From the NCBI GenBank assembly GCA_964510435.1, contig CAZEBU010000001.1, forward strand, positions 144,791 to 208,790: DNA of 64,000 nt. The letters run 5' to 3'. The DNA comes from an uncultured Candidatus Saccharibacteria bacterium (GTDB lineage Bacteria; Patescibacteriota; WWE3; UBA101185; UBA10185). The translations under genes were made by a program, and so were the position numbers. The notes beneath the pieces were generated by a model that was not told the DNA's origin, ran no database searches, and saw only the letters and a program-made list of their open reading frames with translations. How positions within the stretch are numbered: position 1 is the stretch's first letter; each line of letters begins with the position of its first letter. Below are positions 1,531 through 62,078 of this stretch, piece after piece.

Positions 1531-2826
1531 TTGAAAGTTAATAGAAAAATCTTGAGAAGTGCACTGATCATTACTGTGGCGTCCTTGGCAATAGTAGCTG
1601 GAGGTTCTACAGCATTTTTTAGTGATACTGAAACTTCCACTGATAACGTATTGCAAGCGGGTGCGATTGATCTAAGGATTGATAACAACAGCTACTATAA
1701 CGGCGAACGTTCCACAGAAACTTCTTGGAGACTTGCTGACCTTACAGATCAACTATTCTTCAATTTTTATGACCTAAAACCAGGCGACTGGGGTGAAGAC
1801 ACCATTAGCGCACACATTACCAACAATGATGCTTGGTTGTGCATGGATATAACCGTCACAGATACGCCTGACAATGGTCTAACCGAACCGGAATCAGAAG
1901 TTGATGACACCCCGGAAGTAGGCGAGCTACAAAATTACCTCAAGTTTGTCTTCTGGGCTGACGATGGCGACAACGTCCTGGAAGAAGATGAGGTAGAGGG
2001 AATAATTGCCAACAATGTTCCTCTAAGTGAGATAGGAACAGTAGCGTTAGCTGACTCCGAATACAATATTTGGTCTCAGGAACCTAACGATCCCCTAGAG
2101 GGAGGCGAAAGAAACGAGCCTGTGTACTACGTTGGTAAGGCATGGTGTTTTGGTGATTTGACGTTAAATCCCGTTGCACCAGGCGATAATAGTCCGTTAG
2201 ACGACCCTGGTATCTTATGCGACGGAAGAACCGCCGGCAACGAATCTCAGACGGATGCTGTCTGGGCTGATGTTTCTTTCACAGCTGTACAGGCCAGGCA
2301 CAACGGCTCCTATAAATGTGTTGGCTGCGAAGTATCCGGAGACGGGTGGGCTAGCAGTGTCTATGACTCAACACAGGGTCTAAGGAAAAACGGCACAGCA
2401 GTGCCGGTAGGCAGATCTGATCCTACTGAGGCATTAGGTGCTCCGGATGGAGTATTCTACAGCCTGGGATACGGTGGTGAACTAGTGGTTACTTTCCCCG
2501 GCTATATCACCGGGAACGTAACTGCAGTTGAGGTTACCTTCGGACGAGCAGGCTATCCCGAAGAATTGGCTGACGTATCGGTCAGCGAAGACGGATCAAA
2601 CTGGTGCGACGTGGGTACCGCTTCGAACAAGGACACTAATGGAATATCAACCTTTGACGTATCCGGCTGCGGTCTTTCGGACATTGGATATGTCAGGTTA
2701 GTAGATGCTTCAGATCCGGATCTGCATAATACTACATCCGACGGATATGATTTGGATGCTGTTGGTGCAGTAATTTGTTTAGATGAACTAGAAAATAATG
2801 TTCGTTTCCAAACAGATATCGACTAG
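1531..2826 (+). CDS. TasA/camelysin-like (peptidase M73-like fold) secreted fibre protein with a SipW-cognate-type signal peptide
   Basis: N-terminus ...GGSTAFFSDTETSTDNVLQAGAIDLRIDN... and LKPGDWGED resemble the B. subtilis TasA mature N-terminus (AFNDIKSKDATFASGTLDLSAKEN...LKPGDKLTKDF). TTG start preceded by a strong SD. Tandem paralog of the next gene. Confidence 0.7.
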   Translation: MKVNRKILRSALIITVASLAIVAGGSTAFFSDTETSTDNVLQAGAIDLRIDNNSYYNGERSTETSWRLADLTDQLFFNFYDLKPGDWGEDTISAHITNNDAWLCMDITVTDTPDNGLTEPESEVDDTPEVGELQNYLKFVFWADDGDNVLEEDEVEGIIANNVPLSEIGTVALADSEYNIWSQEPNDPLEGGERNEPVYYVGKAWCFGDLTLNPVAPGDNSPLDDPGILCDGRTAGNESQTDAVWADVSFTAVQARHNGSYKCVGCEVSGDGWASSVYDSTQGLRKNGTAVPVGRSDPTEALGAPDGVFYSLGYGGELVVTFPGYITGNVTAVEVTFGRAGYPEELADVSVSEDGSNWCDVGTASNKDTNGISTFDVSGCGLSDIGYVRLVDASDPDLHNTTSDGYDLDAVGAVICLDELENNVRFQTDID

Positions 2827-2873
2827 AAAAAATTAGCAAATAAATTTAAGTAATTTTTAAGGGGGTGAACTAA

Positions 2874-4247
2874 ATGAATAGAACTAAAAGAATACTACTT
2901 AGCTTAGTACTGGTAGGTGCAGTGGCTGCGTTAGTTGGTCTAGGTTCTGCCGCTTTCTTTAGCGATACAGAAACCTCAACTGATAACGTTTTTCAAGCCG
3001 GTGAGATAGACTTGAAGATAGATAATGAAAGTTACTACAACGGAAGGTTCTCTGAACGAACAAGCTGGAAGTTAACAGATCTTACTGTCGAAAAGTTCTT
3101 CGACTTCTTTGATCTCAAACCTGGTGACTGGGGTGAAGATACTATTTCACTTCACGTAACTTCCAATCCCGCATGGGTTTGTGCCAATGTTGAACTTACT
3201 TCTAATCCTGAAAACGGAATCCTAGACCCAGAGGCTGAGGCAGGTGATACTTCCTCAGGCCCATGGAGAGGTGAGCTAGCCCAAGAATTGAAGTTTATCT
3301 TCTGGGCTGACGATGGAGACAACGTTTGGGAATGTTTAGAAAGAGACCAAACACCTAAAAGAGGGAACAGGGCACTTTGGGCTCAAGTTGGGGATAGACT
3401 CTGTGAACGACCTCTCTTAAGAGGTGTCCCGGCACAATTATTCCCGCAAGGGCAAGGTGGAACCACCTTCCCGATAGCAGATGCTTCAAGAGAAGCGCCA
3501 TTCAATAATCCTATGCAACCGGATCACACTTACTTCATTGGTAAGTATTGGTGTTTCGGTGAAATGGGTCTGGATCCGGTACTGTGGGATCAGGGGGAAA
3601 ATCCAACAGTACGTACAGGCTTTACTTGCGACGGCGAACCTGTAGGCAATCTCTCTCAAGGTGATGGTCTTACTGCAGACATTTCTTTCAAAGCTGTACA
3701 GGCCAGACATAACGAGGAGTTTGTTTGCGATTCAGGAATGACTATGGACCTGGAAAACAAAGATGGGAATTGGTCCGTTATAGACGACGATACCTGGGGA
3801 ACATTCTCCTACTACAGTGGAGAGGATACCTTCCACGGCTCAGTTTACGGACAAGGTTTAGAATCTGATGCTCTGTATCAGATCACACTAAACGGTCCCG
3901 GGCCTTGTACAACAACAGATGGTTATTTAGCCGGGTTTGGCAGTAACCTGTTCGAAAGTGGCTATTGGAATAATTGGGCTCCAGGTTTGGCTCCCACTTG
4001 TACTGGTAGTCCAGGCGAAGGTATATATAACATGAACTTAATCGACGATCATTACACCGTCATAACTGATGGCAGTGGAAAGTTCACTTACCCATTTGAT
4101 TTGTCACTTCCTTCTGGAACCTATACGGGTGTGAAGGTATTGGTAAAGAAAATGTTGGATACGCACGTATCGCCTTGGGTAGACAACTCAACCGAGCATA
4201 CAACTAACTTGTTTGAGACAGCCCCTGTCTCGTTTACTGTTAATTAG
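2874..4247 (+). CDS. TasA/camelysin-like paralog with SipW-cognate-type signal peptide and a divergent C-terminal half
   Basis: N-terminal 200 aa are nearly collinear with the previous gene: AAFFSDTETSTDNVFQAGEIDLKIDNESYYNG, FFDLKPGDWGEDTISLHVTSN, LKFIFWADDGDNV, FKAVQARHN. SD AAGGGGGTG lies before the ATG. The C-terminal ~200 aa are unrelated to the paralog. Confidence 0.7.
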   Translation: MNRTKRILLSLVLVGAVAALVGLGSAAFFSDTETSTDNVFQAGEIDLKIDNESYYNGRFSERTSWKLTDLTVEKFFDFFDLKPGDWGEDTISLHVTSNPAWVCANVELTSNPENGILDPEAEAGDTSSGPWRGELAQELKFIFWADDGDNVWECLERDQTPKRGNRALWAQVGDRLCERPLLRGVPAQLFPQGQGGTTFPIADASREAPFNNPMQPDHTYFIGKYWCFGEMGLDPVLWDQGENPTVRTGFTCDGEPVGNLSQGDGLTADISFKAVQARHNEEFVCDSGMTMDLENKDGNWSVIDDDTWGTFSYYSGEDTFHGSVYGQGLESDALYQITLNGPGPCTTTDGYLAGFGSNLFESGYWNNWAPGLAPTCTGSPGEGIYNMNLIDDHYTVITDGSGKFTYPFDLSLPSGTYTGVKVLVKKMLDTHVSPWVDNSTEHTTNLFETAPVSFTVN

Positions 4248-4350
4248 TAAATGAGAAACAAAGTGGTGCTCAACACCTTTTAGGCAGGCTCAGCCACCTA
4301 CCGCCAACCGGGTAAACCTGTTGGCAAACTGGCTGAGCAGGCCTATAAAG

Positions 4351-5046
4351 ATGGTTAAGAAGAAAAGTAAAAAGAAAAAAGAGCAAAGTAGACTTGCCAT
4401 ATCTGCTGATTTGTTTCAGTGGGTAGTTGTATTCCTGCTGGTATTTACATCAGCCTCCTTAGTACTTTCAAATTTTGATACACCTTTAAGGTTTAGGGTT
4501 TTTAGCATCAATTCGGGGTCTATGAAACCAGCCGTCAAATTGGGCGACCTGGTCTTTGTTTTTCCTAGGGACCGCTATTATGAAAATGAGATCATCTCTT
4601 TTTCCGGTCGAGCAAATTTACGGCAGGTCACCACCCATAGGATTTTTTCCGTGAGCGATGACAGGGATCTTGACCGAATATCTTATGTTACTAAGGGGGA
4701 TGCCAATGAAGACCCGGACAGCGGGTTTATCTTGCATGATCGGGTGATAGGCAAAGTGGTTTTCAAGCTGCCGTTGTTAGGTTTTTTAGTAGCTTTTGCC
4801 AAGACGCGTGCCGGTTTTACCTTGTTAGTGGTCATTCCGGCAACCATTCTCGTTTACAGCGAGCTGAGTAGTTTGAGAAAGGAAGTTTCGGGTTTGCTGA
4901 AGAGTCGGAAGAAAGCTAAAGAAAAGGCCGAAAAAGTTAAGATAGCTTCCAAAAAGAAGGAAGAAAAATCATCGACAAAGAAAAGGGCTCTAAAAAATAT
5001 TAAAAAAACTAAGATTAAACGAAAACAATATGAGGACACTAAATAA
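4351..5046 (+). CDS. sipW: Signal peptidase I of the SipW/archaeal-eukaryal type (S26B) with a Lys-rich C-terminal tail
   Basis: SGSMKP (catalytic Ser box), GDLVFV, conserved His in TTHRIF, TKGDANEDP (GDNN-like Asp box), N- and C-terminal TM segments, then a ~50-aa K/E-rich tail. The ORF track starts at a TTG at 4321; the ATG at 4351 (MVKKKSKKKK) is preferred. Confidence 0.75.
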   Translation: MVKKKSKKKKEQSRLAISADLFQWVVVFLLVFTSASLVLSNFDTPLRFRVFSINSGSMKPAVKLGDLVFVFPRDRYYENEIISFSGRANLRQVTTHRIFSVSDDRDLDRISYVTKGDANEDPDSGFILHDRVIGKVVFKLPLLGFLVAFAKTRAGFTLLVVIPATILVYSELSSLRKEVSGLLKSRKKAKEKAEKVKIASKKKEEKSSTKKRALKNIKKTKIKRKQYEDTK

Positions 5047-6952
5047 AAAACAAATTAATAGCGTTTTTTTAAAGATTGTCGCTGCTGCAGTGGTGGGAGC
5101 TCTATTATCCTCAACCACAGCGCACGCTTTCTTTTACGAGGATTCGGAAAGCTCAACTGCCAATGTCTTTTCTTCTACAAGCTTAGATTTAGGCTTGGCT
5201 TCAGACGAGGACAACTTCGAACCTAATGATGGTTGGATACCCGGCAGTTCCGCGGAAAGAATCTTTTTTGTCACCAACGAAGGCGATCTTCCCTTTGTCT
5301 ACGGTCTCAAGTACACCAATGGTGACTCCAACGATCTTTGTGAAAACACTGAACTGCAGGTCATGTATGACGGCGACGAACTCTACAACGACAAGCTGGA
5401 GGACTTTGACATCTTTTACGACTCCGGCGATCCCTTTTTAGATCATATGATGCTGCCGGCGGGACCGGATGAGCACGAATATTACTTTAAAATTTGGCTG
5501 CCTATTGATACGAATGGTGATGCCGCAGATGAAACTTGTAATTTTGATATTGCCGCCTACGCCTGGCAAGAACCATTAGAGCCTTATACCGGATTTTGGG
5601 ATGAAGACTCCTTAAGCAACGAAATAGAATCCGCCGACTGGGAAGGAGACCTAACTTGCAACATCGGTGAAACTGTCTTCATGATCGGCGACGAAGATGA
5701 TCCAATGGAAAATCCGGTTGATGAACTCAACTGGCCAGGTGAATTTGGCGTCTTTCCTGACTTTGCAGATCCGTTTGTAGTGGGTACTAACAATGATAAC
5801 GAATTCCCCTGGAATTCCAATTACGTAAAAGATGAGGCTACAGATTTTGACATTGACTTTTTCTACGCCGGTAAAGACGGGCTGGCCAAATTAACCATTT
5901 CCTGGTCGCCGGGGAGATCAGCCGCCGAACAAAAAGAGGTCTTCTTGGACGGTGACAGCGTGGGCACTACACCCAACAGAACAGGGGTATCTACAGCCGG
6001 TTGGTGGGAAAACATGCCTAGATTTGAAGATGAATTTATCTTCCCGTTATCACAAGGGACGCACACTCTAAACCTAAAGCATCTCAAGGGCGACGGTACT
6101 TTATGGGATTGGGTCGAGCTGGAAATTATTGGCTGCAGTGCAGGGGAAGGTGACGTGATCATTAACGAAATTATGTGGATGGGCTCTGACAGCTCATTCG
6201 AAGATGAATGGGTCGAACTTTACAACGACACAGACCATGATATTAATTTAGACTACTGGACCATTGACAACGCCGGAGACGGTAGCAAGCTTACACTTCC
6301 GGTCGGATCAGTAATTCCTGCCCACAGTTATTATTTAATTTCTAATTTCGCTGCCGACGACGGAGATTCTGCCCTCTCCGACACCAACATCAGCCCTGAC
6401 TATATCACCGGGGATCTTGACTTGGATAATGACGGAGAAACACTTACGCTTAAAGACGCTTTCGAAAATACCGTCGATGAAGCTGACGGTGGTAGTGGCT
6501 GGCCTGCCGGAGAGAACGGGGATGATAAAAAATCCATGGAACGAAACGATGTCCCTTCTACAGGCTGGCACACTTGTACGGATTCCGAATGCAACGACAC
6601 TGATTTCTGGGACAGTGAGGGTGACAATTACGGTACGCCAAAAGCCGAAAATAAATCCGAAAATGATCCTTCGCAGGAGCTTTTGCAGGAAATTTTAGAG
6701 GACATCGGTGAACCGGTACTCGACGTAGTGCCAAATCTGGAAGTTGACCTTTCTGCTGAAGAGGCCGTGGAAGAAACCGTGGAAGATATACCTACACAAG
6801 ATGCCGTTATAAAGGAGGAGGAAACTGTCGAGGGCACAAGCGAAGAGGAAGGCTCACCGGACGGCACACCGCCAACAACCGAACCGGATGAGGAAACCAC
6901 TGTAGAAGAACCTGCTGAAGAGGAAATTACCGAGGAAATAGTCAATGAATAA
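5030..6952 (+). CDS. Secreted protein with SipW-cognate-like signal, a lamin-tail domain (LTD) and an acidic C-terminal tail
   Basis: N-terminus TAHAFFYEDSESSTANVFSSTSLDL resembles the TasA-type signal. GDVIINEIMWMGSDSSFEDEWVELYNDTDHDINLDYWTIDNAGDG matches the LTD pattern (INE...EWIELYN...L.GW). The C-terminus is E/T/P-rich. Overlaps sipW by 17 nt. Confidence 0.6.
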   Translation: MRTLNKKQINSVFLKIVAAAVVGALLSSTTAHAFFYEDSESSTANVFSSTSLDLGLASDEDNFEPNDGWIPGSSAERIFFVTNEGDLPFVYGLKYTNGDSNDLCENTELQVMYDGDELYNDKLEDFDIFYDSGDPFLDHMMLPAGPDEHEYYFKIWLPIDTNGDAADETCNFDIAAYAWQEPLEPYTGFWDEDSLSNEIESADWEGDLTCNIGETVFMIGDEDDPMENPVDELNWPGEFGVFPDFADPFVVGTNNDNEFPWNSNYVKDEATDFDIDFFYAGKDGLAKLTISWSPGRSAAEQKEVFLDGDSVGTTPNRTGVSTAGWWENMPRFEDEFIFPLSQGTHTLNLKHLKGDGTLWDWVELEIIGCSAGEGDVIINEIMWMGSDSSFEDEWVELYNDTDHDINLDYWTIDNAGDGSKLTLPVGSVIPAHSYYLISNFAADDGDSALSDTNISPDYITGDLDLDNDGETLTLKDAFENTVDEADGGSGWPAGENGDDKKSMERNDVPSTGWHTCTDSECNDTDFWDSEGDNYGTPKAENKSENDPSQELLQEILEDIGEPVLDVVPNLEVDLSAEEAVEETVEDIPTQDAVIKEEETVEGTSEEEGSPDGTPPTTEPDEETTVEEPAEEEITEEIVNE

Positions 6953-9125
6953 ATATAACGTCAGCAAAATATTAATAGTGTTTCTCACAGGTCTTTTTTT
7001 TGCACTGGCCGGAAGCAAAGCTTTAGCGATAACGGAAGAAATAACCATTACCTGCAACCCCGGAGACGAAGGCCCCAATAATTGCGCGGTACTGCCTTCC
7101 AACACAGCGCCCCTCTTTGACGAAAACGACTATCCTCTCTTTGATCTAAAACCGGGGGATGAAATTCACCGGGAAATCACTGTGACCAACAATCGAGAAG
7201 AAACTTGCTACTTTACCCTAACGGACGCCACTAAAACCCACGACACGGAAACACCTCCCACCTCGGGAAACTACTTTTCGGATAGATTGGAAACGGAAAT
7301 AACCGACGGTGTTGACACCACTGGTCTGATCTCTTTTGCTACTCTTTTTGGCTTAACGGATATTTACTTGGCCGAACTTGCCCCTTTTGAAACAAAAACA
7401 CTGGATTGGGACGTTTTCTTTGACAAAAACGCCGGCAACGAATACCAGAACGCCCGCTTGGTGTTTGATTTCACCTGGAATTTCAACTGTGGTGAGGAAC
7501 CTCCACAGACTGAGCTTTTCATCGAAAAAACCAATAACAAAATAGGTATAACCCAGTTGCCAGGAGCAGATGTAACTTACACCATTTTTGTAACCGCTTC
7601 CCAATTTTATCCGGTTTTCAACGTTATTGTTCTTGACCTACCGCCAGGAGGATTCACCTATACACCCGGCAGCTGGACAGCGAATTCCAGTGTGAGAGGA
7701 AACATAAAAGGCTTGGGAACTACCACGGAGCCAAGCTACACCTCACCGGGACTCTGGAACCTGGGTGATATGGAAGCTGGAGAGGTAGTTACTCTAACCT
7801 ATGTCACAAACATTAGCTCCTCTCAACAGCCCGGCTTATATAAAGACATTGCCTGGACAGAGGGTACCGCTACTTCAGACCCTACGTCAACTCGAGTCTT
7901 AGGAAATGCAGGTACAGGATTTTTTGTAGGCACTTCAGCCGCAGTTGATATAGAGGATCCCAAGGAAGTACAGGTAGAACCCGAAATAGAAATTATAAAA
8001 ATAGAAGAAGGAGAAGTTTTGGGAGCGGAAATATTGCCAGCCACCGGAGCCAATAACATCTGGGTTTTTATCATTTCCAACCTTTTTGGGATCGGTGTGA
8101 TCCTCACTATCATCGGCTTATATTTAAAGAGACACCGCAAGGGTGCGAGAACAGCCTTGCAGATCTTTGTCTTCCTTGCTGCTGCAGCACTTACCTTCTC
8201 AGCAAACGCTTTTGCCACCGATCTTCTCATTAGGCTTGCGGAGCCGGCAAGTCCCAACAACCTTAATGAGCTGGACCTAAATTTTGTCGCTATGGATGTT
8301 GAAAATAGGGCAGTCACCGTAAAGTGTTTTAAAAAGGGACCAAGCGAAGCAGCATTCTCACAGTTTGGGTCATCTACCATCACTATACCGGGTGGAGATA
8401 CAGGATATTGTGATGTAACCTCATCCGTTCTCTCCGGCATGGGAACTTACAAATTTTACGCTACAGCAGACGCAGGCGGTGATAATAGCACCAGCCAAAC
8501 GGTAACTATTGAACATGACGACGAACGCCCGGGAAAACCTCACAACTTAGACAAAGACAAAAACGGTTCCTGCAAATACGACATCAGCTTTACCACAGAC
8601 TCCGATGGAGGAGACACAGTTAGGGTTGAGGTTTATCGTTCGGATGATAAGGAATTTTACGTCAACGACTCTACAAAAATTAAGGACATCGTAGTTGGCT
8701 CAGACACAGACGTTAGCTTCACAGATGATAGACCAACCTGCGGTAAAACCTACTACTATGCTGTGGCGGCTTTTGACGCGGCGGGAAATCGTTCGAAAAT
8801 ACTCGTCGAAGAATTAGAAAAAGAAAAAATAATTATCAAGACCACTAAGGAAACAGAAATAACATCAGTTTTTGGAGAGATCACGGAGGCTATCGCCCTA
8901 GGAGAAGGTGCCATAACGACTCCAGAGGAAGAAGATACGGAAGAAGTCATCGAGGAGGAGGAGCTAAGTGTGGAAAAAGAGAAGGAAGAGAAGGTTTTAG
9001 GTCTGCAGGAAGTGTCGGAAGAAGAAGGGGCTTTCTCGGAACTACTAAAAATCTTAAAGTGGCCTGTTCTAGTTCTGCTAGTTTTGATAATCTTGCTTTA
9101 TGTTAGAAAGAAACTTAAAAGGTAG
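6945..9125 (+). CDS. Mosaic surface protein: TasA-like N-domain, an internal LPATG sorting signal with a TM segment and basic patch, then a second module with a fibronectin-III-like segment, an acidic tail and a C-terminal TM anchor
   Basis: Signal peptide. LFDLKPGDEIHREITVTNN (TasA-like). EILPATGANNIWVFIISNLFGIGVILTIIGLYLKRHRKG at about aa 360. A second hydrophobic segment follows (ALQIFVFLAAAALTFSANAFA). TCGKTYYYAVAAFDAAGNRS is Fn3-like. The C-terminus is ...WPVLVLLVLIILLYVRKKLKR. Confidence 0.55.
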   Translation: MNKYNVSKILIVFLTGLFFALAGSKALAITEEITITCNPGDEGPNNCAVLPSNTAPLFDENDYPLFDLKPGDEIHREITVTNNREETCYFTLTDATKTHDTETPPTSGNYFSDRLETEITDGVDTTGLISFATLFGLTDIYLAELAPFETKTLDWDVFFDKNAGNEYQNARLVFDFTWNFNCGEEPPQTELFIEKTNNKIGITQLPGADVTYTIFVTASQFYPVFNVIVLDLPPGGFTYTPGSWTANSSVRGNIKGLGTTTEPSYTSPGLWNLGDMEAGEVVTLTYVTNISSSQQPGLYKDIAWTEGTATSDPTSTRVLGNAGTGFFVGTSAAVDIEDPKEVQVEPEIEIIKIEEGEVLGAEILPATGANNIWVFIISNLFGIGVILTIIGLYLKRHRKGARTALQIFVFLAAAALTFSANAFATDLLIRLAEPASPNNLNELDLNFVAMDVENRAVTVKCFKKGPSEAAFSQFGSSTITIPGGDTGYCDVTSSVLSGMGTYKFYATADAGGDNSTSQTVTIEHDDERPGKPHNLDKDKNGSCKYDISFTTDSDGGDTVRVEVYRSDDKEFYVNDSTKIKDIVVGSDTDVSFTDDRPTCGKTYYYAVAAFDAAGNRSKILVEELEKEKIIIKTTKETEITSVFGEITEAIALGEGAITTPEEEDTEEVIEEEELSVEKEKEEKVLGLQEVSEEEGAFSELLKILKWPVLVLLVLIILLYVRKKLKR

Positions 9126-9762
9126 ACTCCCCGATCTTCTTATCAAAGCCGGTTCTGCGCTCATCCTGGCTGCCGGGGTTTTTTTTGTGGTAGCTTTTTA
9201 TCCCAGCATCGTTTCGGAGACAAAATATCTTTTCCTCAAGCCAAATGAAGATGCTAAGATCATCGTCGATCCAAACCCTAATTTAGATAATAAAACAAGA
9301 GAAAAGTACTACATCAAGCCGGCCGATCCCGAATTTGGACTGGTTATACCTAAGATAGGTGCTAATTCTAAGGTTGTACCCAATGTAAATGCCTACGATC
9401 CTAAAATATATCAACAAGCGTTAACCAAGGGTGTAGCTCATGCGGAAGGTACTGTTTTCCCCGGGCAAATTGGTAACATTTTTGTTTTTTCCCACTCCTC
9501 CAGCAATTTCTACGAGGCAAACAAGTATAATTCTGTTTTTTATCTTCTTAGAAAACTAAACGCTGACGACTTTTTCTATTTTACTTATCAAGGGAAAGTG
9601 TATAAGTACAAGGTAAGAGAGACGAAAATAGTTGAACCAGAAGAAGTTGAGTACTTAACACAGACAACAAGCAAAAAACAAGCCACTCTTATGACCTGCT
9701 GGCCTCCGGGAACTACTCTAAAAAGACTCTTGGTCGTTGGGGAGCTAGTGGAACAGAATTAG
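9100..9762 (+). CDS. Sortase (second copy)
   Basis: N-terminal TM. His motif VFSHSS, catalytic TLMTCWPPG, and Arg in KRLLVVGE. Overlaps the end of the previous gene by 26 nt. Confidence 0.75.
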   Translation: MLERNLKGRLPDLLIKAGSALILAAGVFFVVAFYPSIVSETKYLFLKPNEDAKIIVDPNPNLDNKTREKYYIKPADPEFGLVIPKIGANSKVVPNVNAYDPKIYQQALTKGVAHAEGTVFPGQIGNIFVFSHSSSNFYEANKYNSVFYLLRKLNADDFFYFTYQGKVYKYKVRETKIVEPEEVEYLTQTTSKKQATLMTCWPPGTTLKRLLVVGELVEQN

Positions 9763-10472: not shown

Positions 10473-10625
10473 ATGCCTAAAAGAAGTTGGCAACCAAAAA
10501 AGAAAAAACGATTAAGAAAACATGGTTTTTTAAAAAGAATGCACACTCCTGGTGGTAAAAGAATTATCAAAAGAAGAAGAGATAAAAAAAGAAAAAGGTT
10601 AGCTGCCGTTATTAGTAGTAAATAA
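10473..10625 (+). CDS. rpmH: 50S ribosomal protein L34
   Basis: A 50-aa ORF found by eye (not in the ORF track): [50 protein letters not shown]. It has the typical L34 K/R-rich composition and HGF motif, and the canonical position upstream of rnpA. Confidence 0.9.
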
Positions 10626-10632
10626 AACATCA

Positions 10633-10977
10633 ATGCTAAAAAAACAAAACCGCCTCTCCACTAAATTTGAATTTAATGTCACGAGAAAACACGGTATAAA
10701 AAAGACCTATGACTATTTTCATTTATTTTACCTAAAACCTAACAATTACGAAGGTTCGGTTAAGATCGGTATTGTCATCCCCAATAAGTTCCATAAAAAT
10801 GCCGTAACGAGAAATAGAATTAAAAGGGTATTTAGAGAATTAATTAGAGGAAATATCAAAAAGCTACCCGATAACACCTGGCTGGTATTCCATCCAAAAG
10901 TAGAAAGTATTAAAGCAAGCCATGAAAAAATTAGCACTGATATTAATAAGGCTCTATCAGAAATTTCTCTCTCCTGA
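10633..10977 (+). CDS. rnpA: Ribonuclease P protein component
   Basis: RNRIKR (RNR motif), basic composition, 114 aa, directly downstream of rpmH. Confidence 0.85.
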   Translation: MLKKQNRLSTKFEFNVTRKHGIKKTYDYFHLFYLKPNNYEGSVKIGIVIPNKFHKNAVTRNRIKRVFRELIRGNIKKLPDNTWLVFHPKVESIKASHEKISTDINKALSEISLS

Positions 10978-11137
10978 AAACTTTGGTTTTCAAGTATGTA
11001 GATTCGAACCGAGTTGTTCAAGATACACCTATAAGGCTGTTGAGAAATATGGTTTATTAAAAGGAGGACTGATGGGACTATACAGAGTTGTAAGATGCAA
11101 CCCCTTTAACAAAGGTGGATCAGACCCCTTGCTTTAA
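10922..11137 (+). CDS. yidD: Membrane protein insertion efficiency factor YidD
   Basis: CRFEPSCSRY (Cys-x-F-x-P-S-C-S-x-Y hallmark), 71 aa. Overlaps the rnpA 3' end, as is common. Confidence 0.85.
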   Translation: MKKLALILIRLYQKFLSPENFGFQVCRFEPSCSRYTYKAVEKYGLLKGGLMGLYRVVRCNPFNKGGSDPLL

Positions 11138-11173
11138 CCAACACACTCTGGCAAAATAACACCTGTTGTCATT

Positions 11174-11947
11174 ATGCTATTAGAACTATACCAAACAATA
11201 TTAGTCAACCCCATATTCAATACCCTAGCCTTGGTATTTCTGTTAACAAATAGTTTGGGTTTTTCCATTATTGGCCTCACCATTGTAGTTAAGACCATAT
11301 CCATTCCGGCTATGCTGCCTTCACTAAGATCGATAAAAAAGCAAAGAAATTTACAACCTCAATTAGACAAGCTCAAAAAAAAATATAAGTACGATAAAAA
11401 GAAACAAGCCGAGCTGCAGATGCAGCTTTTCAAGGAACACGGCATTAATCCTGCCTCCGGTTGTTACAGCATGATCATTACCATACTGATCTTTACTGCT
11501 CTGTATTCCGTGATCAGACAAATAACTCAAGTGGCCGACATTTCCGAAATTAACGCACACCTATACTTTGATTTCCTCAAGTTCACCTCACTAGAGCAGC
11601 TCTCCACAAAGTTTTTCTATCTGGATCTGGCCACACCCGACCCCTACTTTATTATGGCTATACTGGCCGGTGTAACACAATTCATATTGGCAAAAATGAC
11701 CATGCCCTACGTGGAACAAGGTGTTAAAGCCGCTAAAAAAACTCCTGACAAGAAAGATGATTTTGCGTATAATATGCAGAAGCAGTCCATGTACATCATG
11801 CCTGGTATGATGGCTCTGTTGGGATTGAGTCTGCCCTCCGGTGTGATCATGTACATAATCACATCAACCATCTTTTCAGTTGTGCAAAATTATTTTATAA
11901 ATGGATGGGGAGGATTACAGCCCTTAATTAATAAGATAAAAAAGTAA
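11174..11947 (+). CDS. yidC: Membrane protein insertase YidC (short, Gram-positive/Oxa1-like form)
   Basis: Multi-TM with conserved YidC core segments (GLTIVVKTISIP, KEHGINPASGC, MYIMP). Canonical rnpA-yidD-yidC context. Confidence 0.8.
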   Translation: MLLELYQTILVNPIFNTLALVFLLTNSLGFSIIGLTIVVKTISIPAMLPSLRSIKKQRNLQPQLDKLKKKYKYDKKKQAELQMQLFKEHGINPASGCYSMIITILIFTALYSVIRQITQVADISEINAHLYFDFLKFTSLEQLSTKFFYLDLATPDPYFIMAILAGVTQFILAKMTMPYVEQGVKAAKKTPDKKDDFAYNMQKQSMYIMPGMMALLGLSLPSGVIMYIITSTIFSVVQNYFINGWGGLQPLINKIKK

Positions 11948-11948
11948 G

Positions 11949-12392
11949 ATGTCCAAAGAAGCAATAGATAAACATTTGAAAACACTCTTGGGCTATATTG
12001 ACATTGCGCCCGAAGTAACCATTGAGGAAGATGGGGAAGCCTTCAGGATCGATATCCATGGGGACGACCTGAATTTCCTGATCGGCTACAGAGGTGAGTC
12101 TCTGGATGCTTTGCAGTATATTCTCAGCCACGCCGTTTACAAGGACACCAGCAATTGGATACCTCTCACTCTGGATATCAATGGCTATAGAAAACAAAAA
12201 TTAGAAAAGCTGGAGGAAATGGTCATGGCGATCGTCGATAGAGTAAGATTCCATCAAAAAGAGATCAAACTGCCGCCGCTTTCTCCTTTCGAAAGAAGAC
12301 ATATTCACTTGTTTATTGAGGAGTACGTTGATGTAAATAGCGAAAGCAGAGGAGAAGGAAGACAACGAAGATTGTTTCTCATACCTAAATAA
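11949..12392 (+). CDS. jag: Jag/KhpB-like RNA-binding protein (KH + R3H)
   Basis: LIGYRGESLDALQYIL (KH-like GxxG region) and C-terminal R3H-like FERRHIHL. Conserved position after yidC. Confidence 0.75.
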   Translation: MSKEAIDKHLKTLLGYIDIAPEVTIEEDGEAFRIDIHGDDLNFLIGYRGESLDALQYILSHAVYKDTSNWIPLTLDINGYRKQKLEKLEEMVMAIVDRVRFHQKEIKLPPLSPFERRHIHLFIEEYVDVNSESRGEGRQRRLFLIPK

Positions 12393-13507
12393 TGAAGTTT
12401 ACATGCCTGCAAGAAAACCTAACCGACGCATTAACAAAAGTGTATCGCGCCGTACCTACAAAAAGTGAGCTGCCTATTCTCTCCAATATCTTGATCTCTG
12501 CTGAAGACAACCGGCTAAAGATCTCGGCCACTAATTTGTCAACCACTATTGTCACTCACGTAGGCGCCTCTATCGAAGAGGAAGGTGCTATAACCATCCC
12601 GGCTAAAATGCTCAGAGACTACATCGCTAACTTAAGTTCATCTTCCCTAGAAGCTTTTTTAAAAGAAGATATCCTACATGTCAATTCAGAGGCCACCAAA
12701 TCAAGATTTAACGGTGTATCAGCAGAAGATTATCCTGATCTTCCCGAAGAAAACAGCGAGCTAAAAACATTGGAAATTAATGCACAGAAATTTTATGAGG
12801 CCATATCTTCTGTGTCTTTTTGCGCTTCCATTGATGATAGTAGACCGATCTTCACAGGAGTGTATTTTGACTGTGACGGCAAACAGATCACTATTGCCGC
12901 TTCCGACGGGTTTAGATTGTCAGAAGCAAAAATCACTCCGGAAAATAAACCGGGTAAGTTTAGGGTTATTATCCCGGCAAAAACTTTAACCGACTTGGCG
13001 AGAGTTTTTTCGGATCGGGAAGAAAGTATTAAACTCACCTTGGATACAAGAGACAACTTAGCAATTTTTAAACAAGGAGACACCTTAATAGCCACCAGGA
13101 TACTTGACGGTGAATACCCGGATTATACAAAAATCATTCCGGAAGAGACCTCAACGATAGTAGAATTATCCACCAACGAGTTTTTAGAAGCCGTAAAGCT
13201 AACCGATATATTTGCCAAAGAAGCAGATAGCGCTTTGGTCATGAAAATTGACCCCAAAGGTTTTGTTGAGTTGGTAGCTACCGCCCAAGAATCCGGAGAG
13301 CATAAACACAAAATAAAAACGGGTGTAGAAGCAAAAGAAAAACTGGAAATAGGTTTTAACTCAAAATTTTTACTTGATTTCCTAAACAATGTTAAGTCGG
13401 AAAGGATATCCATAAGCACTAACGGAAATTCGGCTCCTTGCATTTTTAAGGCCGTAGATAAGGAAAACTACTTACATATCATTATGCCTATGCAGATCAA
13501 TGGCTAA
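12392..13507 (+). CDS. dnaN: DNA polymerase III beta sliding clamp
   Basis: 371 aa with three-domain clamp architecture. N-terminus MKFTCLQENLTDAL...LSNILISAEDNRLKISATNL is typical of DnaN. Confidence 0.9.
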   Translation: MKFTCLQENLTDALTKVYRAVPTKSELPILSNILISAEDNRLKISATNLSTTIVTHVGASIEEEGAITIPAKMLRDYIANLSSSSLEAFLKEDILHVNSEATKSRFNGVSAEDYPDLPEENSELKTLEINAQKFYEAISSVSFCASIDDSRPIFTGVYFDCDGKQITIAASDGFRLSEAKITPENKPGKFRVIIPAKTLTDLARVFSDREESIKLTLDTRDNLAIFKQGDTLIATRILDGEYPDYTKIIPEETSTIVELSTNEFLEAVKLTDIFAKEADSALVMKIDPKGFVELVATAQESGEHKHKIKTGVEAKEKLEIGFNSKFLLDFLNNVKSERISISTNGNSAPCIFKAVDKENYLHIIMPMQING

Positions 13508-29479: not shown

Positions 29480-29554
29480 TGGAGGCGCAGAGGGGAATCG
29501 AACCCCCGCATCGAGGTTTTGCAGACCCCAGCGTTTCCACTTCGCCACTGCGCC
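29480..29554 (-). tRNA. tRNA-Cys (anticodon GCA)
   Basis: Reverse complement reads GGCGCAGTGGCGAAGTGGAAACGCTGGGGTCTGCAAAACCTCGATGCGGGGGTTCGATTCCCCTCTGCGCCTCCA. Acceptor stem GGCGCAG/CTGCGCC, anticodon loop CTGCAAA (T33, GCA, A37), T-arm GGGGG-TTCGATT-CCCCC, encoded CCA end. Confidence 0.75.
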
Positions 29555-60637: not shown

Positions 60638-61390
60638 ATGACTAAAAAAATTTACATTAAAGACGACAGCTTTGACCCCATATATAAAGAAGTGAGCAGA
60701 GGTTTTTATACAAAAACAAGAATCATGCCCACATTATTGGTGTTTGCAGGACTTTTTACTTTTGCCACACAAGTTCTGCTACCGGTGCTGGTCTTCAAAA
60801 CTCATGATGAATCTATTGCTTTAGTGGACAACGCTACCGTTCTAGGAAGAGCCGCAGGTTTTCAAAAGTTTGAATTTGAAGAATTAGAAACAAAACAAGA
60901 TGAATACCAATATAACCCTAGAAGTGATTTTCAAGTGCGGGGTGCACAAGCAACTAACGTACCAGATTACTTTCTCATAACAATCCCCAAGCTCGGCATT
61001 AAAGAGGCTCTCGTTGAAACAAACGCCAAAGATCTTAATCCTGATACTGCCTTGGGTCACTATGCGGGTACGGTTTTACCGGGAGAGGTTGGAAACTCCT
61101 TTATTTTTGGGCATTCAGTTCTACCGTGGTTTTTCAACCCAAAAAATTATAAAACTATTTTTTCCACCCTTGGTAAACTTTCTTCCGGAGATGAATTCCA
61201 AGTCACATATAACAATACTATCTACAATTATGTTGTAGAAAGTGTTGAAGAACTTTCTCCTAAAGAGGTAAGACCTCTGGCAGAGCTCAAACCAAAATAT
61301 CTAAATAAGTCCACCATGGTTTTAATGACTTGCTCACCTCCGGGAACAAAGCTAAAGAGACTCTTGGTAAATGCTGTTATGGTAAGTTAA
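60638..61390 (+). CDS. Sortase (third copy)
   Basis: N-terminal TM. His motif FIFGHSV, catalytic VLMTCSPPG, and Arg in KRLLVNAV. Confidence 0.75.
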   Translation: MTKKIYIKDDSFDPIYKEVSRGFYTKTRIMPTLLVFAGLFTFATQVLLPVLVFKTHDESIALVDNATVLGRAAGFQKFEFEELETKQDEYQYNPRSDFQVRGAQATNVPDYFLITIPKLGIKEALVETNAKDLNPDTALGHYAGTVLPGEVGNSFIFGHSVLPWFFNPKNYKTIFSTLGKLSSGDEFQVTYNNTIYNYVVESVEELSPKEVRPLAELKPKYLNKSTMVLMTCSPPGTKLKRLLVNAVMVS

Positions 61391-61911
61391 TCAAACTCGT
61401 CTAGGACGTCTTTTTCAAACGAGGATAAAGCTATTTTCCTAGGACCTACAAAGTAAATGTAGATAACAAGACTTAGAATGATCAGGGTTAAAAAAATACC
61501 TATAGTCGGCCCTGAAACTCCCGTATCAGGAACTGTAGACTCGGTGGTTTCCGGTGCCAAGTCCGGCGTGGTGGTTGTTACTGCTTCGCCTGTCTCTGCG
61601 CCTGCAAGAACGGCACCTTCTCCAGGTTGAGGACCCCCTATTCTCCTATTTGCCAGATCTCCAAAAACGCTAACTTCCGGCTCTTCTGGTCTTTCGGAGG
61701 TCTCTCCAAGCGTTTCCGATCCAGTGTTCGTCGTTTTTGCTTCCGGGGAGCTTAAAATTTCCTGCGCAAGAGGAACTTGCCTCGTAGTATCTGTTTCAGA
61801 ATTGATAACATAGTAAATAGCGCTAAAAACAGCCAGAGAAATTGCCAGAGTAAGTATGAATGTTTTAAAACCTTTCTGTGCTTGTGTATTAGAATTCATA
61901 GGCAGGCTCAA
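61387..61911 (-). CDS. Hypothetical bitopic protein with Thr/Pro/Glu-rich extracellular linker
   Basis: N-terminal TM (FILTLAISLAVFSAIYYVI), a T/E/P-rich low-complexity middle, and a C-terminal TM (IGIFLTLIILSLVIYIYFV). Confidence 0.35.
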   Translation of the reverse strand: MSLPMNSNTQAQKGFKTFILTLAISLAVFSAIYYVINSETDTTRQVPLAQEILSSPEAKTTNTGSETLGETSERPEEPEVSVFGDLANRRIGGPQPGEGAVLAGAETGEAVTTTTPDLAPETTESTVPDTGVSGPTIGIFLTLIILSLVIYIYFVGPRKIALSSFEKDVLDEFD

Positions 61912-62078
61912 ATTCCTTCTTCAAAAACTCCAGGTCTAATCCTTCGCTTACCAACACTGATTTCTCCACAACCGCCGGGTTTATAAACTTATCTTCAGAA
62001 AACTCCCAAAATTTTGACCCTACCCATAATATACCAATTATAAATAAAATTAACAACAAAGTTAGTAAGTTTTTCATA

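Follow-up and report, generated by a model that had tools for sequence, protein, structure and literature searches.

The closest precedent for the arrangement described below is the N-terminal anchor region of the streptococcal Zmp proteins (IgA1 protease/ZmpA, ZmpB, ZmpC, ZmpD), which carry an N-terminal LPXTG motif, two transmembrane (TM) segments and a second signal peptidase site (PMC3518915). Only a short stretch precedes LPXTG in these proteins; their functional domain, an M26 protease, is C-terminal, and they have no TM anchor at the C-terminus. Among CPR bacteria, PamR of the Pam pilus is described as an RbmA-like protein with a signal peptide, two tandem FnIII domains and a C-terminal TM helix, which was proposed to be a membrane tether in Saccharimonadia and Microgenomatia (bioRxiv 10.64898/2026.03.03.709456). 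In Actinobacteria, the conserved membrane protein SafA is genetically linked to sortase and works at the sortase/signal peptidase interface; it is described as a small TM protein acting via an FPW motif, with no ectodomains mentioned (PMC9282373).

The window, i.e., the whole stretch of 64,000 nucleotides that was analysed, contains at positions 6945..9125 (+) a 726-aa frame that, according to both the ORF list and the sequence, is uninterrupted by a stop; its first 8 nt also belong to the upstream gene. A preliminary description had noticed LPATG, a hydrophobic segment and a KRHRKG patch in the middle of this protein with no stop following, a possible TTG at about 8158, a second signal-peptide-like segment, an acidic tail and a terminal TM/KKLKR anchor. 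All of these are present (aa 364-368, 372-394 and 395-402; TTG at 8157-8159, codon 405; aa 403-424, 623-699 and 700-720), and the Fn3-like module that it reported as one unit consists of two FnIII domains (aa 425-524 and 529-622). The frame and the sortase gene behind it comprise:

6945..7028, + strand: N-terminal Sec signal peptide, aa 1-28, ending ...GSKALA before ITEE (hydropathy peak at aa 9-27; helix 3-21 in the AF2 model)
7029..7499, + strand: N-terminal beta-sandwich with 4 conserved Cys, aa 29-185, tentatively TasA/camelysin-like (AF2 strands 27-182)
7521..7946, + strand: CLIPPER/DUF11 (CnaA-like) domain, aa 193-334, conserved, the last before the sorting signal (PF01345)
8007..8024, + strand: [VI]LG-type motif EGEVLG, aa 355-360, just 5' of LPATG (V358, L359 and G360 invariant in the 15-homologue alignment)
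8034..8048, + strand: internal sortase motif LPATG, aa 364-368 (invariant in the alignment)
8058..8126, + strand: TM1, the sorting-signal hydrophobic segment IWVFIISNLFGIGVILTIIGLYL, aa 372-394, 23 residues (Kyte-Doolittle peak 2.44; AF2 helix 372-396)
8127..8150, + strand: cytoplasmic basic loop KRHRKGAR, aa 395-402, as predicted from sequence and hydropathy
8151..8216, + strand: internal signal-peptide-like segment TALQIFVFLAAAALTF-SANAFA, aa 403-424 (hydropathy; AF2 helix 401-423; aligns with the N-terminal signal peptides of stand-alone orthologues)
8217..8516, + strand: FnIII-like domain 1, aa 425-524 (AF2 pLDDT 89; Foldseek; conservation)
8529..8810, + strand: FnIII-like domain 2, aa 529-622, with C543/C599, K537 and a YYYAxxAFDxAGNxS motif (AF2; Foldseek; conservation)
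8811..9041, + strand: acidic disordered linker, aa 623-699 (pLDDT <50 for aa 625-701)
8991-9002, + strand: KVLG motif within this linker, aa 683-686 (conservation)
9042..9125, + strand: C-terminal TM anchor, aa 700-720, with the basic tail RKKLKR and the stop (Kyte-Doolittle peak 2.63; AF2 helix 696-725)
9100..9762, + strand: sortase gene, sharing 26 nt with the 3' end of the ORF (PF04203, 84.4 bits)

The motif, the hydrophobic segment, the basic residues and the neighbouring sortase are those of a canonical sorting signal, the difference being that here the signal is internal (aa 364-402 of 726) and 324 residues lie beyond it. The KRHRKGAR loop would double as the sorting signal's charged tail and the n-region of the signal peptide that comes next. 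A signal peptidase I site is predicted between A424 and T425 (ANAFA followed by T); the signal-peptide reading of this segment relies on the comparison with split orthologues given below. In the AF2 model, beta-sandwich domains flank the helix pair on both sides and the stretch around LPATG is disordered.

Of the 33 homologues that a search with the ORF returned, about 12 are full-length (718-766 aa, 45-69% identity); these come from independent assemblies (JGI, NCBI, ENA, Logan), have the same layout and align colinearly through the junction. Across 15 aligned homologues L364, P365, T367 and G368 are invariant, and PF00746 matches the LPATG region in 4 of the 15. When the C-module served as the query, 1307 representatives of 50%-identity clusters were retrieved at E<=1e-3, of which 320 reach E<=1e-30. 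The fused layout, with the module as the very last part of a longer protein (up to 3090 aa), was observed in 102 of the best 150 representatives, and in 93 of these 102 a strict LPx[TSA]G stands shortly before the module; a second pass on the fused proteins detected an LPXTG-like motif in 97%. LPxTG is present in 102 of 115 fused proteins, and a [VI]LG lies no more than 14 aa upstream of the sortase motif in 105/115 fused proteins and in 20/20 split loci. The family medians are 23 aa for the uncharged run equivalent to TM1 and 8 aa, with 4 K/R and 0 D/E, for the hairpin loop. Since the LPATG residues are invariant in 15 homologues and the layout recurs in more than 100 cluster representatives, the internal sorting-signal arrangement far exceeds chance. 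The ORF is a genuine, conserved and evolutionarily recurrent fusion that is selectively maintained.

At this locus, other genomes of CPR bacteria, those of WWE3 among them, have two genes. The LPXTG protein stops after its sorting signal, which is perfectly canonical at this C-terminus, and the gene that follows, overlapping or abutting the first, encodes 315-340 aa beginning with a true signal peptide; a frameshift or a stop separates the two at the equivalent point. The upstream protein ends in LPXTG, a TM segment and a basic tail in all 20 split genome loci tested. In one of them (L001), with the same synteny as the window, a 417-aa LPATG protein is followed by an overlapping 328-aa gene, whose product starts with MKRFKNLLIIVGFAVATVLTVNVAFA and continues QSLLIRIEEP, and then by the sortase. 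The internal segments of fused proteins were compared with the true signal peptides of split orthologues. The median length of the uncharged run is 16 residues in the former and 15 in the latter, AxA is present in 46% and 50%, respectively, and the -3/-1 residues are small in all 118 fused proteins (100%) and in 98% of the split ones; by these measures, the segment at the junction resembles a signal peptide that can still be cleaved. In five of nine fused genome loci, no ATG, GTG or TTG codon lies between TM1 and the h-region, which means that the module can be produced there solely as part of the fusion. On a neighbour-joining tree of 167 modules, built without branch support, at least 18 fusion/fission switches are needed, compared with about 39 when the states are shuffled. 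Such repeated fusion and fission may be explained by the position of the two proposed cuts, which would flank the hairpin and make the fused and split states nearly equivalent.

The second half of the protein has the architecture of PamR, as far as can be judged from the description of the latter. Foldseek matched the C-module to tandem FnIII pairs (E 1e-7), with RbmA 4be5 at rank 26, and NCBIfam gave only weak Fn3-region matches to domain 2; the module family is without a Pfam or NCBIfam model. Domain 1 opens, right after the predicted A424/T425 site, with a strand and loop that rank with the best-conserved parts of the module (L-S-V-R-L-E-x-P-K-S-P-T-N; DLLIRLAEPASPNN in this ORF). The model places this strand as strand A of that same FnIII domain and does not leave it free as a donor strand. 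The Pam operon, unlike the present locus, is described with no sortase and no LPXTG. The Cys pairs of both domains, including C461 and C489 in domain 1, are conserved at 98-99% and are putative disulfides, which fits an extracytoplasmic location of the domains. In the KVLG motif, G686 is Gly in 161/167 sequences and L685 is Leu in 139/167.

We think it likely that the ORF is a fused pair of neighbouring genes from a CPR surface-display cassette, processed as follows. Gene 1 encodes the sortase substrate (signal peptide, variable cargo, CLIPPER/DUF11, (E/Q)VLG, LPXTG, TM segment, basic tail). Gene 2, the obligate partner of gene 1 on its downstream side, encodes a predicted type I membrane protein with a cleavable signal peptide, two FnIII-like domains, a low-complexity VLG linker, a TM segment and a basic tail; gene 3, always next, is that of the dedicated sortase. 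In the fused form, the sorting-signal TM would run out-to-in and the former signal peptide in-to-out, forming a helical hairpin: Sec would export the N-part, TM1 would act as stop-transfer, the second segment would restart translocation, now of the FnIII domains, and TM3 would anchor the C-part. Sortase would cut LPATG between T367 and G368 and transfer the N-part, most simply to peptidoglycan, and signal peptidase I would cut after ANAFA, so that a hairpin remnant of about 57 aa would be discarded and the two mature products would be those of the split genes. Excision of the hairpin by the two enzymes is the most likely course; it assumes, by analogy, that sortase can act on an LPXTG standing before a hairpin instead of a free C-terminal tail. 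The 9100..9762 product is the sortase dedicated to the cassette; a homologous sortase lies directly downstream of the C-module in 32/32 genome loci. A TM hairpin joining two extracellular modules, with release of the N-domain by sortase and a C-fragment that stays anchored in the membrane, had been one of two readings in the preliminary description, and conservation supports it, since LPXTG, the positive-inside loop, the second signal peptide, the Cys pairs and the adjacent sortase are kept family-wide. The cleavable-looking signal peptide at the junction and the family-wide cassette go beyond that description. Such a three-part surface-display cassette is undescribed so far and common in ultra-small (CPR) bacteria.

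Compared with Zmp, both halves of the ORF are full modules and the C-half has its own TM anchor; the halves are separate genes in relatives, and a dedicated sortase adjoins. No sequence relation to Zmp was found in the Pfam and NCBIfam searches, which gave the ORF no protease family. As a best guess, the FnIII partner would assist in the sortase step as a stoichiometric accessory anchored in the membrane, either an adaptor or a pseudo-substrate. Its tail looks like a sorting signal in which VLG, the TM segment and the basic tail are kept and LPXTG is missing, and the only part common to this tail and the substrate sorting signal in an hhalign comparison is a 9-column GEVLGxxT motif (72% probability). 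The analogy with SafA, with which the partner has no sequence or architectural similarity, is conceptual only.

The other reading in the preliminary description, a fusion of two genes through a lost stop or an assembly error, holds in the evolutionary sense that relatives have two genes. That this organism itself really has two, the single frame being due to an assembly or sequencing error or a recent stop loss, is barely credible. Split versions do exist in related WWE3 and Microgenomates genomes, and a single indel, or in the case of L026 and L030 a single stop-to-sense change, would be enough to fuse the genes at the junction. However, the nearest relatives (P0002-P0012), assembled from four independent sources, are all fused, which largely refutes this explanation; a stop or frameshift between the genes occurs in distant relatives, but the fusion here stands. 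The prevalence of the fused state among the best 150 representatives argues in the same direction, as does the junction itself, which retains a positive-inside loop and signal-peptide features that a random fusion of frames would not be expected to have. It is also very improbable that the C-module is made chiefly by internal initiation at the TTG at 8157, the locus acting as two overlapping genes with the read-through fusion as a by-product. An SD-like AAGG/GGGTG (AAGGGTG) is located 11-13 nt upstream of this codon and a Met near the n/h boundary is kept in several fused homologues, but a product starting at L405 would be deprived of its basic n-region, since KRHRKGAR lies upstream, the loci mentioned above have no start codon in the loop/n-region at all, and with no stop the fusion protein would be made anyway.

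More serious, though unlikely, is the possibility that processing is incomplete, with sortase cutting LPATG and the internal helix left uncut to give a three-TM C-product G368...R726, or with no cut at all and a three-TM protein bearing two ectodomains. Internal signal-like helices behind another TM are often uncleaved signal anchors, strict AxA is found in less than half of fused proteins, and AF2 gives 401-423 as a continuous helix. Against this, the h-region is short, the -3/-1 residues are small throughout and the segment is indistinguishable from the signal peptides of split orthologues, while the mature N-terminal strand and loop are highly conserved; the version without any cut is at odds with the retention of LPXTG and the sortase that always adjoins. 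A further possibility, which we regard as rather improbable, is that sortase (also) ligates LPAT to the FnIII partner, at Lys537 or at the new N-terminus, producing a covalent membrane-tethered adhesin on a stalk, the partner being a basal-pilin analogue with a TM anchor in place of LPXTG. The gene order of substrate, small two-Ig-domain protein and sortase resembles that of sortase pilus clusters (pilin, class C sortase, small basal pilin), and the isopeptide-type CnaA-like domain of the substrate and the presence of a second sortase in the window are further points of likeness to such clusters; K537 is the sole highly conserved Lys of the module (152/167), fusion enforces a 1:1 stoichiometry, and the partner tail resembles a sorting signal without LPXTG. 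Yet some of the 167 sequences have another residue at position 537 (10 Arg, 4 Val, 1 His), and none of these residues offers the required lysine side-chain amine; conservation is also lacking at the residue that follows the predicted signal peptidase site, and there is no obvious benefit in joining a membrane-anchored protein to another membrane anchor. The best NCBIfam class of the sortase is C, but its score of 71.7 bits is far below the cut-off of 160. In contrast to pilus clusters, the small protein here lacks LPXTG and has retained a TM anchor, the analysis identified no pilin motif, and a 1:1 fusion argues against long polymers.

In the N-part, PF01345 scores 27.6 bits on the ORF (cut-off 24.6) and matches 13/15 homologues, with K195, N197, D231 and F327-T330 invariant in the alignment; the name CLIPPER is from PMC12617251. 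The N-domain is possibly TasA-like, as its best PDB sequence matches are TasA 5of1 and 8aur, weak and sub-threshold (E 0.06-0.08), and it shows a weak, colinear similarity to the Peptidase_M73 proteins encoded in the window itself. The genes upstream of the ORF are:

1531-2826 and 2874-4247, + strand: two camelysin/TasA-like (Peptidase_M73) genes
4321-5046, + strand: SipW/archaeal-type signal peptidase gene
5030-6952, + strand: gene whose product combines a TasA-like N-terminus with a lamin-tail domain

The two Peptidase_M73/TasA-like genes and the SipW-type peptidase recall TapA-SipW-TasA fibre operons. This context (1531..6952), shared syntenically by five loci (L001, L002, L006, L007 and L010), is confined to the window's subfamily, and the likeness is limited accordingly: in most cassette members the cargo domains are different ones, often giant, and neither TasA nor SipW genes lie close by. 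In two loci (L020, L037) the module and sortase are present and the adjoining LPXTG gene is absent. A second, different sortase is encoded elsewhere in the window, at 680-1219.

The gene at 6945-9125 of the forward strand (hereafter the ORF) is an uninterrupted reading frame of 726 aa, and all the elements that the preliminary description had listed for it were recovered by translation, a hydropathy scan and AlphaFold2 modelling, down to a suspected TTG near 8158, which lies at 8157-8159 and is codon 405. The parts of the ORF and the genes that adjoin it are as follows.

1531-2826 and 2874-4247, forward: two camelysin/TasA-like genes (PF12389 above cut-off)
4321-5046, forward: SipW/archaeal-type signal peptidase (TIGR02228, 77.9 bits)
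5030-6952, forward: protein of 640 aa, TasA-like at the N-terminus, with a lamin-tail domain and a tail that is very acidic
ORF aa 1-28, forward: N-terminal signal peptide, ...KALA/ITEE
ORF aa 364-368 (nt 8034-8048), forward: LPATG; with the upstream VLG the sequence reads EVLGAEILPATGAN
ORF aa 372-394, forward: 23-residue hydrophobic segment (TM1; Kyte-Doolittle 2.44)
ORF aa 395-402, forward: basic patch KRHRKGAR, directly after TM1
ORF aa 403-424, forward: second, shorter hydrophobic segment (TM2) ending SANAFA/TD; after this predicted signal peptidase site the C-part would begin TDLLIRLAEPASPNNLNELDLNFVAMDVENR
ORF to about aa 622, forward: beta-rich sequence, then an acidic stretch
ORF aa 700-720, forward: last hydrophobic helix (TM3), then RKKLKR
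8016-8024 and 8994-9002, forward: sites of a family-wide VLG-type motif
9100-9762, forward: sortase (PF04203, 84.4 bits against a cut-off of 26.6), overlapping the end of the ORF by 26 nt

In the AlphaFold2 model, built from a 15-sequence alignment (mean pLDDT 71), the N-part consists of beta-sandwich domains at 27-182 and 191-334, the LPATG lies within a disordered stretch (339-371), helices 372-396 and 401-423 lead into sandwiches at 427-524 and 533-621, and the C-terminal end is disordered at 625-695 and helical at 696-725. Compared with the PDB by Foldseek, the full-length model retrieved only generic multi-Ig chains. The LPATG is invariant in the 15 homologues and, as in a sorting signal, a hydrophobic segment and positive residues follow it directly; such a signal stands at the extreme C-terminus in split orthologues, whereas in the ORF 324 residues come after it.

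The preliminary description had offered two readings of this arrangement, a transmembrane hairpin joining two extracellular modules or two genes fused through a lost stop or an assembly error. Among 5.8 billion proteins searched, 33 homologues were found; about a dozen of these have lengths of 718-766 aa, align over 86-100% of the query with 45-69% identity and come from JGI, NCBI, ENA and Logan assemblies. The alignments are colinear across the junction, with L364, P365, T367 and G368 invariant, and the more distant P0017, P0021 and P0022 (34-39% identity) keep the layout of the ORF. Since independent homologues run colinearly through the junction, the ORF is the product of neither an assembly error nor a recently lost stop, and the single ORF as an artefact is rejected. 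As an evolutionary statement, however, the two-gene reading stands. Two homologues, P0013 (417 aa, read on nine contigs) and P0015 (413 aa), terminate right after the sorting signal, and at the P0013 locus (L001) the synteny is that of the window (signal peptidase, lamin-tail-domain protein, LPATG protein, sortase), except that a 328-aa gene is set apart in another frame, its start overlapping the stop codon of the LPATG gene. The product of this gene begins MKRFKNLLIIVGFAVATVLTVNVAFA/QSLLIRIEEPETP, in which a textbook Sec signal peptide leads into the strand that is conserved after ANAFA in the ORF. Split loci of this type mean that the ORF is an evolutionary fusion of two genes and that both states are natural, and the question whether orthologues have one gene or two has both answers: two at the P0013 locus, one in the dozen or so full-length homologues. 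At two Collierbacteria/Microgenomates loci (L026 and L030, both at 6991-6997) the two genes stand in the same frame with one stop codon between them, a candidate either for a one-mutation path to fusion or for read-through.

The C-terminal part of the ORF (two FnIII-like domains, a linker and a TM segment; hereafter the module), which is a stand-alone gene in split relatives, belongs to a large family. A search with aa 404-726 against 1.84 billion cluster representatives gave 1307 proteins at E<=1e-3 and 320 at E<=1e-30. Among the best 150 of the 1307, 48 stand alone, with lengths of about 315-335 aa and a match that begins near residue 10, and 102 carry the module at the extreme C-terminus of a protein of 410-3090 aa. 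A strict LPx[TSA]G stands just upstream of the module in 93 of these 102 longer proteins, and after it come two hydrophobic runs, separated by basic residues, and then an AxA-like site; the remaining nine have motif variants, e.g., MPSTG and FPATG. A second pass over 115 fused proteins found LPxTG in 102, with median lengths of 23 aa for the first uncharged run, 8 aa for the loop (median four K/R and no D/E), 19 aa for the second uncharged run and 57 aa from LPXTG to the conserved strand.

A scan of one genome per GTDB species, with loci annotated by six-frame ORF extraction and phmmer with the proteins of the window, yielded 33 loci from Levy-, Gottesman-, Pace-, Roizman-, Shapiro- and Collierbacteria, WWE3, 'Patescibacteria group' and Saccharibacteria-labelled MAGs. 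In all 32 loci having downstream DNA, the gene directly 3' of the module is homologous to the window's sortase, and the LPXTG protein upstream is fused to the module in nine loci and separate in 21. All 20 separate LPXTG proteins examined, and that of L034, end with LPXTG, a TM segment and a basic tail, and in split loci the module gene starts 8-32 nt before the stop of the LPXTG gene or at most 2 nt after it. The unit conserved throughout is a CLIPPER-like domain, (E/Q)VLG, LPXTG, the hairpin or a gene boundary, the module and the sortase. TasA-like and SipW genes are found only beside the ORF's own subfamily (L001, L002, L006, L007 and L010); outside it the cargo is a giant adhesin. Fitch parsimony on a neighbour-joining tree of 167 modules requires at least 18 switches between the fused and split states, against about 39 for shuffled states, a rough count as the tree carries no support values. 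What emerges is an unannotated CPR cassette of an LPXTG protein, an FnIII membrane partner and a dedicated sortase.

Several loci deserve separate mention. Eight cassette-bearing MAGs (L005, L009, L011, L012, L019, L021, L034 and L037) are titled Gammaproteobacteria, Pseudomonadales or Thermodesulfobacteriota; they are 'binchicken' and co-assembly bins, the cassette is otherwise restricted to CPR, and the titles are probably taxonomic mislabels. No LPXTG gene adjoins the module in L020 and L037, and in L037 (4225-5488) the module upstream of the sortase is present as two overlapping ORFs (238 and 231 aa), perhaps because a frameshift has made it a pseudogene or because of an error in sequencing. 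One genome, Candidatus Shapirobacteria STF1_270, has two or more complete fused cassettes of adhesin, module and sortase, which lie on different contigs (L024 and L025), and from these it seems that each adhesin is accompanied by its own module and its own sortase.

At the junction, the internal segment of 118 fused proteins was compared with the true N-terminal signal peptide of the 48 stand-alone modules. The longest uncharged run has a median of 16 residues in the former and 15 in the latter, a strict AxA is present in 46% and 50%, and small residues occupy positions -3 and -1 in 100% and 98%, respectively; an LPXTG-like motif is retained in 97% of the fused proteins. Directly after the site follows the most conserved stretch of the module, L-S-V-R-L-E-x-P-K-S-P-T-N, in which P434 is conserved at 94%. 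Each FnIII domain has one cysteine pair (C461/C489 and C543/C599), conserved at 98-99%, as one would expect of domains outside the cytoplasm. Five of the nine fused genome loci lack any ATG, GTG or TTG from TM1 to the h-region and can therefore produce the module only within the fusion; in the window the TTG at codon 405 is the only start candidate in this interval, and its product would have no basic n-region. Conservation supports the hairpin with sortase release that had been proposed from the sequence, in which the N-part would lie outside, followed by TM1, a basic loop inside, TM2, the FnIII domains outside, TM3 and a basic tail inside. Both cleavage sites appear to be retained at the junction, where both cuts would be made; that between T and G of the LPATG, with the ensuing transfer, would be carried out by the adjoining sortase, judging from the genetic linkage. 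As to the cysteines, the split locus L001 has 3' of its cassette (10479-13254) genes for a thioredoxin, a DsbD-like TM protein with redoxin domains, MsrB and MsrA, and this extracytoplasmic thiol-redox set could act on the cysteines that are conserved in cassette proteins.

The domain part of the module (aa 424-630) is modelled by AlphaFold2 as two seven-strand sandwiches (pLDDT 89), and its Foldseek matches in the PDB are tandem FnIII pairs (integrin beta4, 1qg3 and 3f7p, at E 1e-7, contactins and gp130), with V. cholerae RbmA (4be5) at rank 26 and a PapD-like chaperone fold absent; it is thus a tandem of seven-strand FnIII folds. None of 41 module members has a Pfam or NCBIfam match above cut-off, the module profile found no related sequence in the PDB, and the source entries from Daviesbacteria, Collierbacteria, Levybacteria and WWE3 are all named 'hypothetical protein'. 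The N-terminal strand of the module was considered as a free donor strand of the kind proposed for PamR, but this is not supported, as AlphaFold2 places it as strand A of the first FnIII domain. The low-complexity stretch that links the second domain to the TM segment contains a highly conserved VLG (position 686 is Gly in 161 of 167, 96%), and (E/Q)VLG also precedes the LPXTG, 3-6 residues upstream, in 105 of 115 fused and 20 of 20 split substrates. In an hhalign comparison the profiles of the module tail and the substrate tail align only over the nine columns of GEVLGxxT (72% probability). From this alignment and the shared VLG the module tail looks like a sorting signal minus the LPXTG; that it is a complete sorting-signal homologue is rejected by the same short alignment. 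A second conserved linker motif is G-A-I-P (equivalent to aa 648-651), and either this or the VLG could be a docking or processing site.

In the N-part, CLIPPER/DUF11 (PF01345) at aa 193-315 (27.6 bits, cut-off 24.6) is the sole sequence-model match of the ORF in Pfam and NCBIfam scans and is matched by 13 of 15 homologues. K195, N197 and D231 of this domain are invariant in the 15-sequence alignment and may take part in an intramolecular Lys-Asn/Asp isopeptide bond, although some DUF11 domains are known to be missing it (PMC12617251). The preceding domain (aa 29-185) has no Pfam match, PF12389 included; its profile gave TasA (5of1 and 8aur) as top PDB matches at sub-threshold E values of 0.06-0.08, and hhalign against the M73 proteins of the window gave E 0.0014 yet just 18% probability. 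A TasA-like sandwich is therefore possible at a sub-threshold level, and the N-part, with this putative sandwich and CLIPPER, may be the wall anchor or a terminal subunit of the TasA-like fibre encoded upstream.

We propose that the fusion protein is a natural polyprotein. The sortase would cut LPAT/G and transfer the N-part, by default to peptidoglycan, the established acceptor of LPXTG systems; signal peptidase I would cut behind ANAFA, and the hairpin between the two cuts, about 57 aa, would be discarded. Fused products would then be the same as those of split loci, which would account for the recurrence of fusion and fission and for the retention of both motifs. Invariant synteny and frequent fusion point to an FnIII partner that acts together with the sortase-processed protein in a ratio of about 1:1, and we favour its being a membrane-anchored adaptor or pseudo-substrate of the dedicated sortase. 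Less likely, if more novel, is that the FnIII partner is itself the acceptor, like a basal pilin. The hairpin would then be the excised part of a sortase-driven ligation ('splicing'), in which signal peptidase exposes the partner, the sortase moves the LPAT end onto Lys537 or the new N-terminus instead of peptidoglycan, and the VLG-bearing, LPXTG-less tail of the partner docks the sortase. K537 is indeed the only strongly conserved lysine of the module (152 of 167), but Arg (10), Val (4) or His (1) in the other 15 weakens it as an obligatory nucleophile, and we regard ligation as improbable. Were it true, it would give a covalent membrane-tethered adhesin on an FnIII stalk, a wall-independent, self-contained and CPR-specific sortase display with substrate and acceptor often in one polypeptide.

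The topological trick itself has precedent, and the cassette is a widespread variant of a known but rare device. In streptococcal Zmp/IgA1 proteases (PMC3518915) a signal peptide is followed by an LPXTG away from the C-terminus, then by two hydrophobic segments and another signal peptidase site, and the ORF has the same order of elements, its second site being signal-peptidase-like. Unlike them, it has no protease family (M26) in Pfam and NCBIfam scans and a C-part of two FnIII domains; both halves of the cassette fusion are complete modules, found as separate genes in relatives, the C-half carries its own TM anchor, a dedicated sortase always adjoins, and the family has no sequence relationship to Zmps. 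PamR (WP_260763282.1) of the CPR Pam pilus, RbmA-like with two FnIII domains and a C-terminal TM helix, is an analogue of the module in its architecture, and the Pam system, unlike the cassette, has no sortase; SafA (PMC9282373), a membrane factor linked to a sortase, is a precedent in concept. In an incomplete paper library we found no description of the cassette, a negative that counts as weak evidence.

Annotators and sortase biologists treat sorting signals as a C-terminal feature, yet throughout the fused members of this family they are internal, with a second signal peptide after them, so that many of the largest Microgenomates and WWE3 adhesins would be overlooked or wrongly annotated by standard LPXTG predictors that accept only C-terminal signals. 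A device of LPXTG, TM hairpin and second signal peptidase site, so far described only in streptococcal Zmp proteases, extends to a second, unrelated and much larger family, and it provides a compact natural model for exporting two ectodomains together from a single gene. As a Rosetta-stone experiment made by nature, the recurrence of fusion and fission links an uncharacterised FnIII membrane protein 1:1 to the sortase pathway and offers a testable handle on the mounting of surface adhesins in uncultivated, host-dependent bacteria.

The sortase at 9100-9762 passes the generic models (TIGR01076 at 65 against 39.35, besides PF04203) and falls short of the class C, pilus-specific NF033745 (71.7 bits, cut-off 160); the genes after it read, from their translations, as rpmH, rnpA, yidD and yidC. 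The forward-strand genes at 1531-6952 form a TasA-type fibre locus, in which both Peptidase_M73/camelysin-like proteins have AFFSDTETSTDNV N-termini, the SipW-type peptidase has a long Lys-rich C-terminal tail and neighbouring genes overlap by a few nt, e.g., ATGAATAA at 6945. Further upstream (36-683, forward) a 215-aa secreted protein ends with GSVLGIGGQVLGLATTG (...QVLGLATTG), a TM segment and KKEK; this sorting signal is of the LATTG type and contains two VLG motifs. Directly 3' of the gene lies a second, shorter sortase (680-1219, forward; PF04203, 65.9 bits). Homologues of the latter elsewhere in several cassette-bearing genomes (L013, L015, L019 and L028) suggest that such genomes may have two sortase types. 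A tRNA-Cys (GCA) at 29480-29554 of the reverse strand is the sole RNA gene detected in the 64 kb, with no further Rfam match at gathering thresholds. Finally, in a 177-aa ORF on the reverse strand (61387-61920) the sequence VPDTG, with a hydrophobic segment and R/K, lies about 45 residues from the C-terminus and may be another non-terminal sorting-signal-like element.
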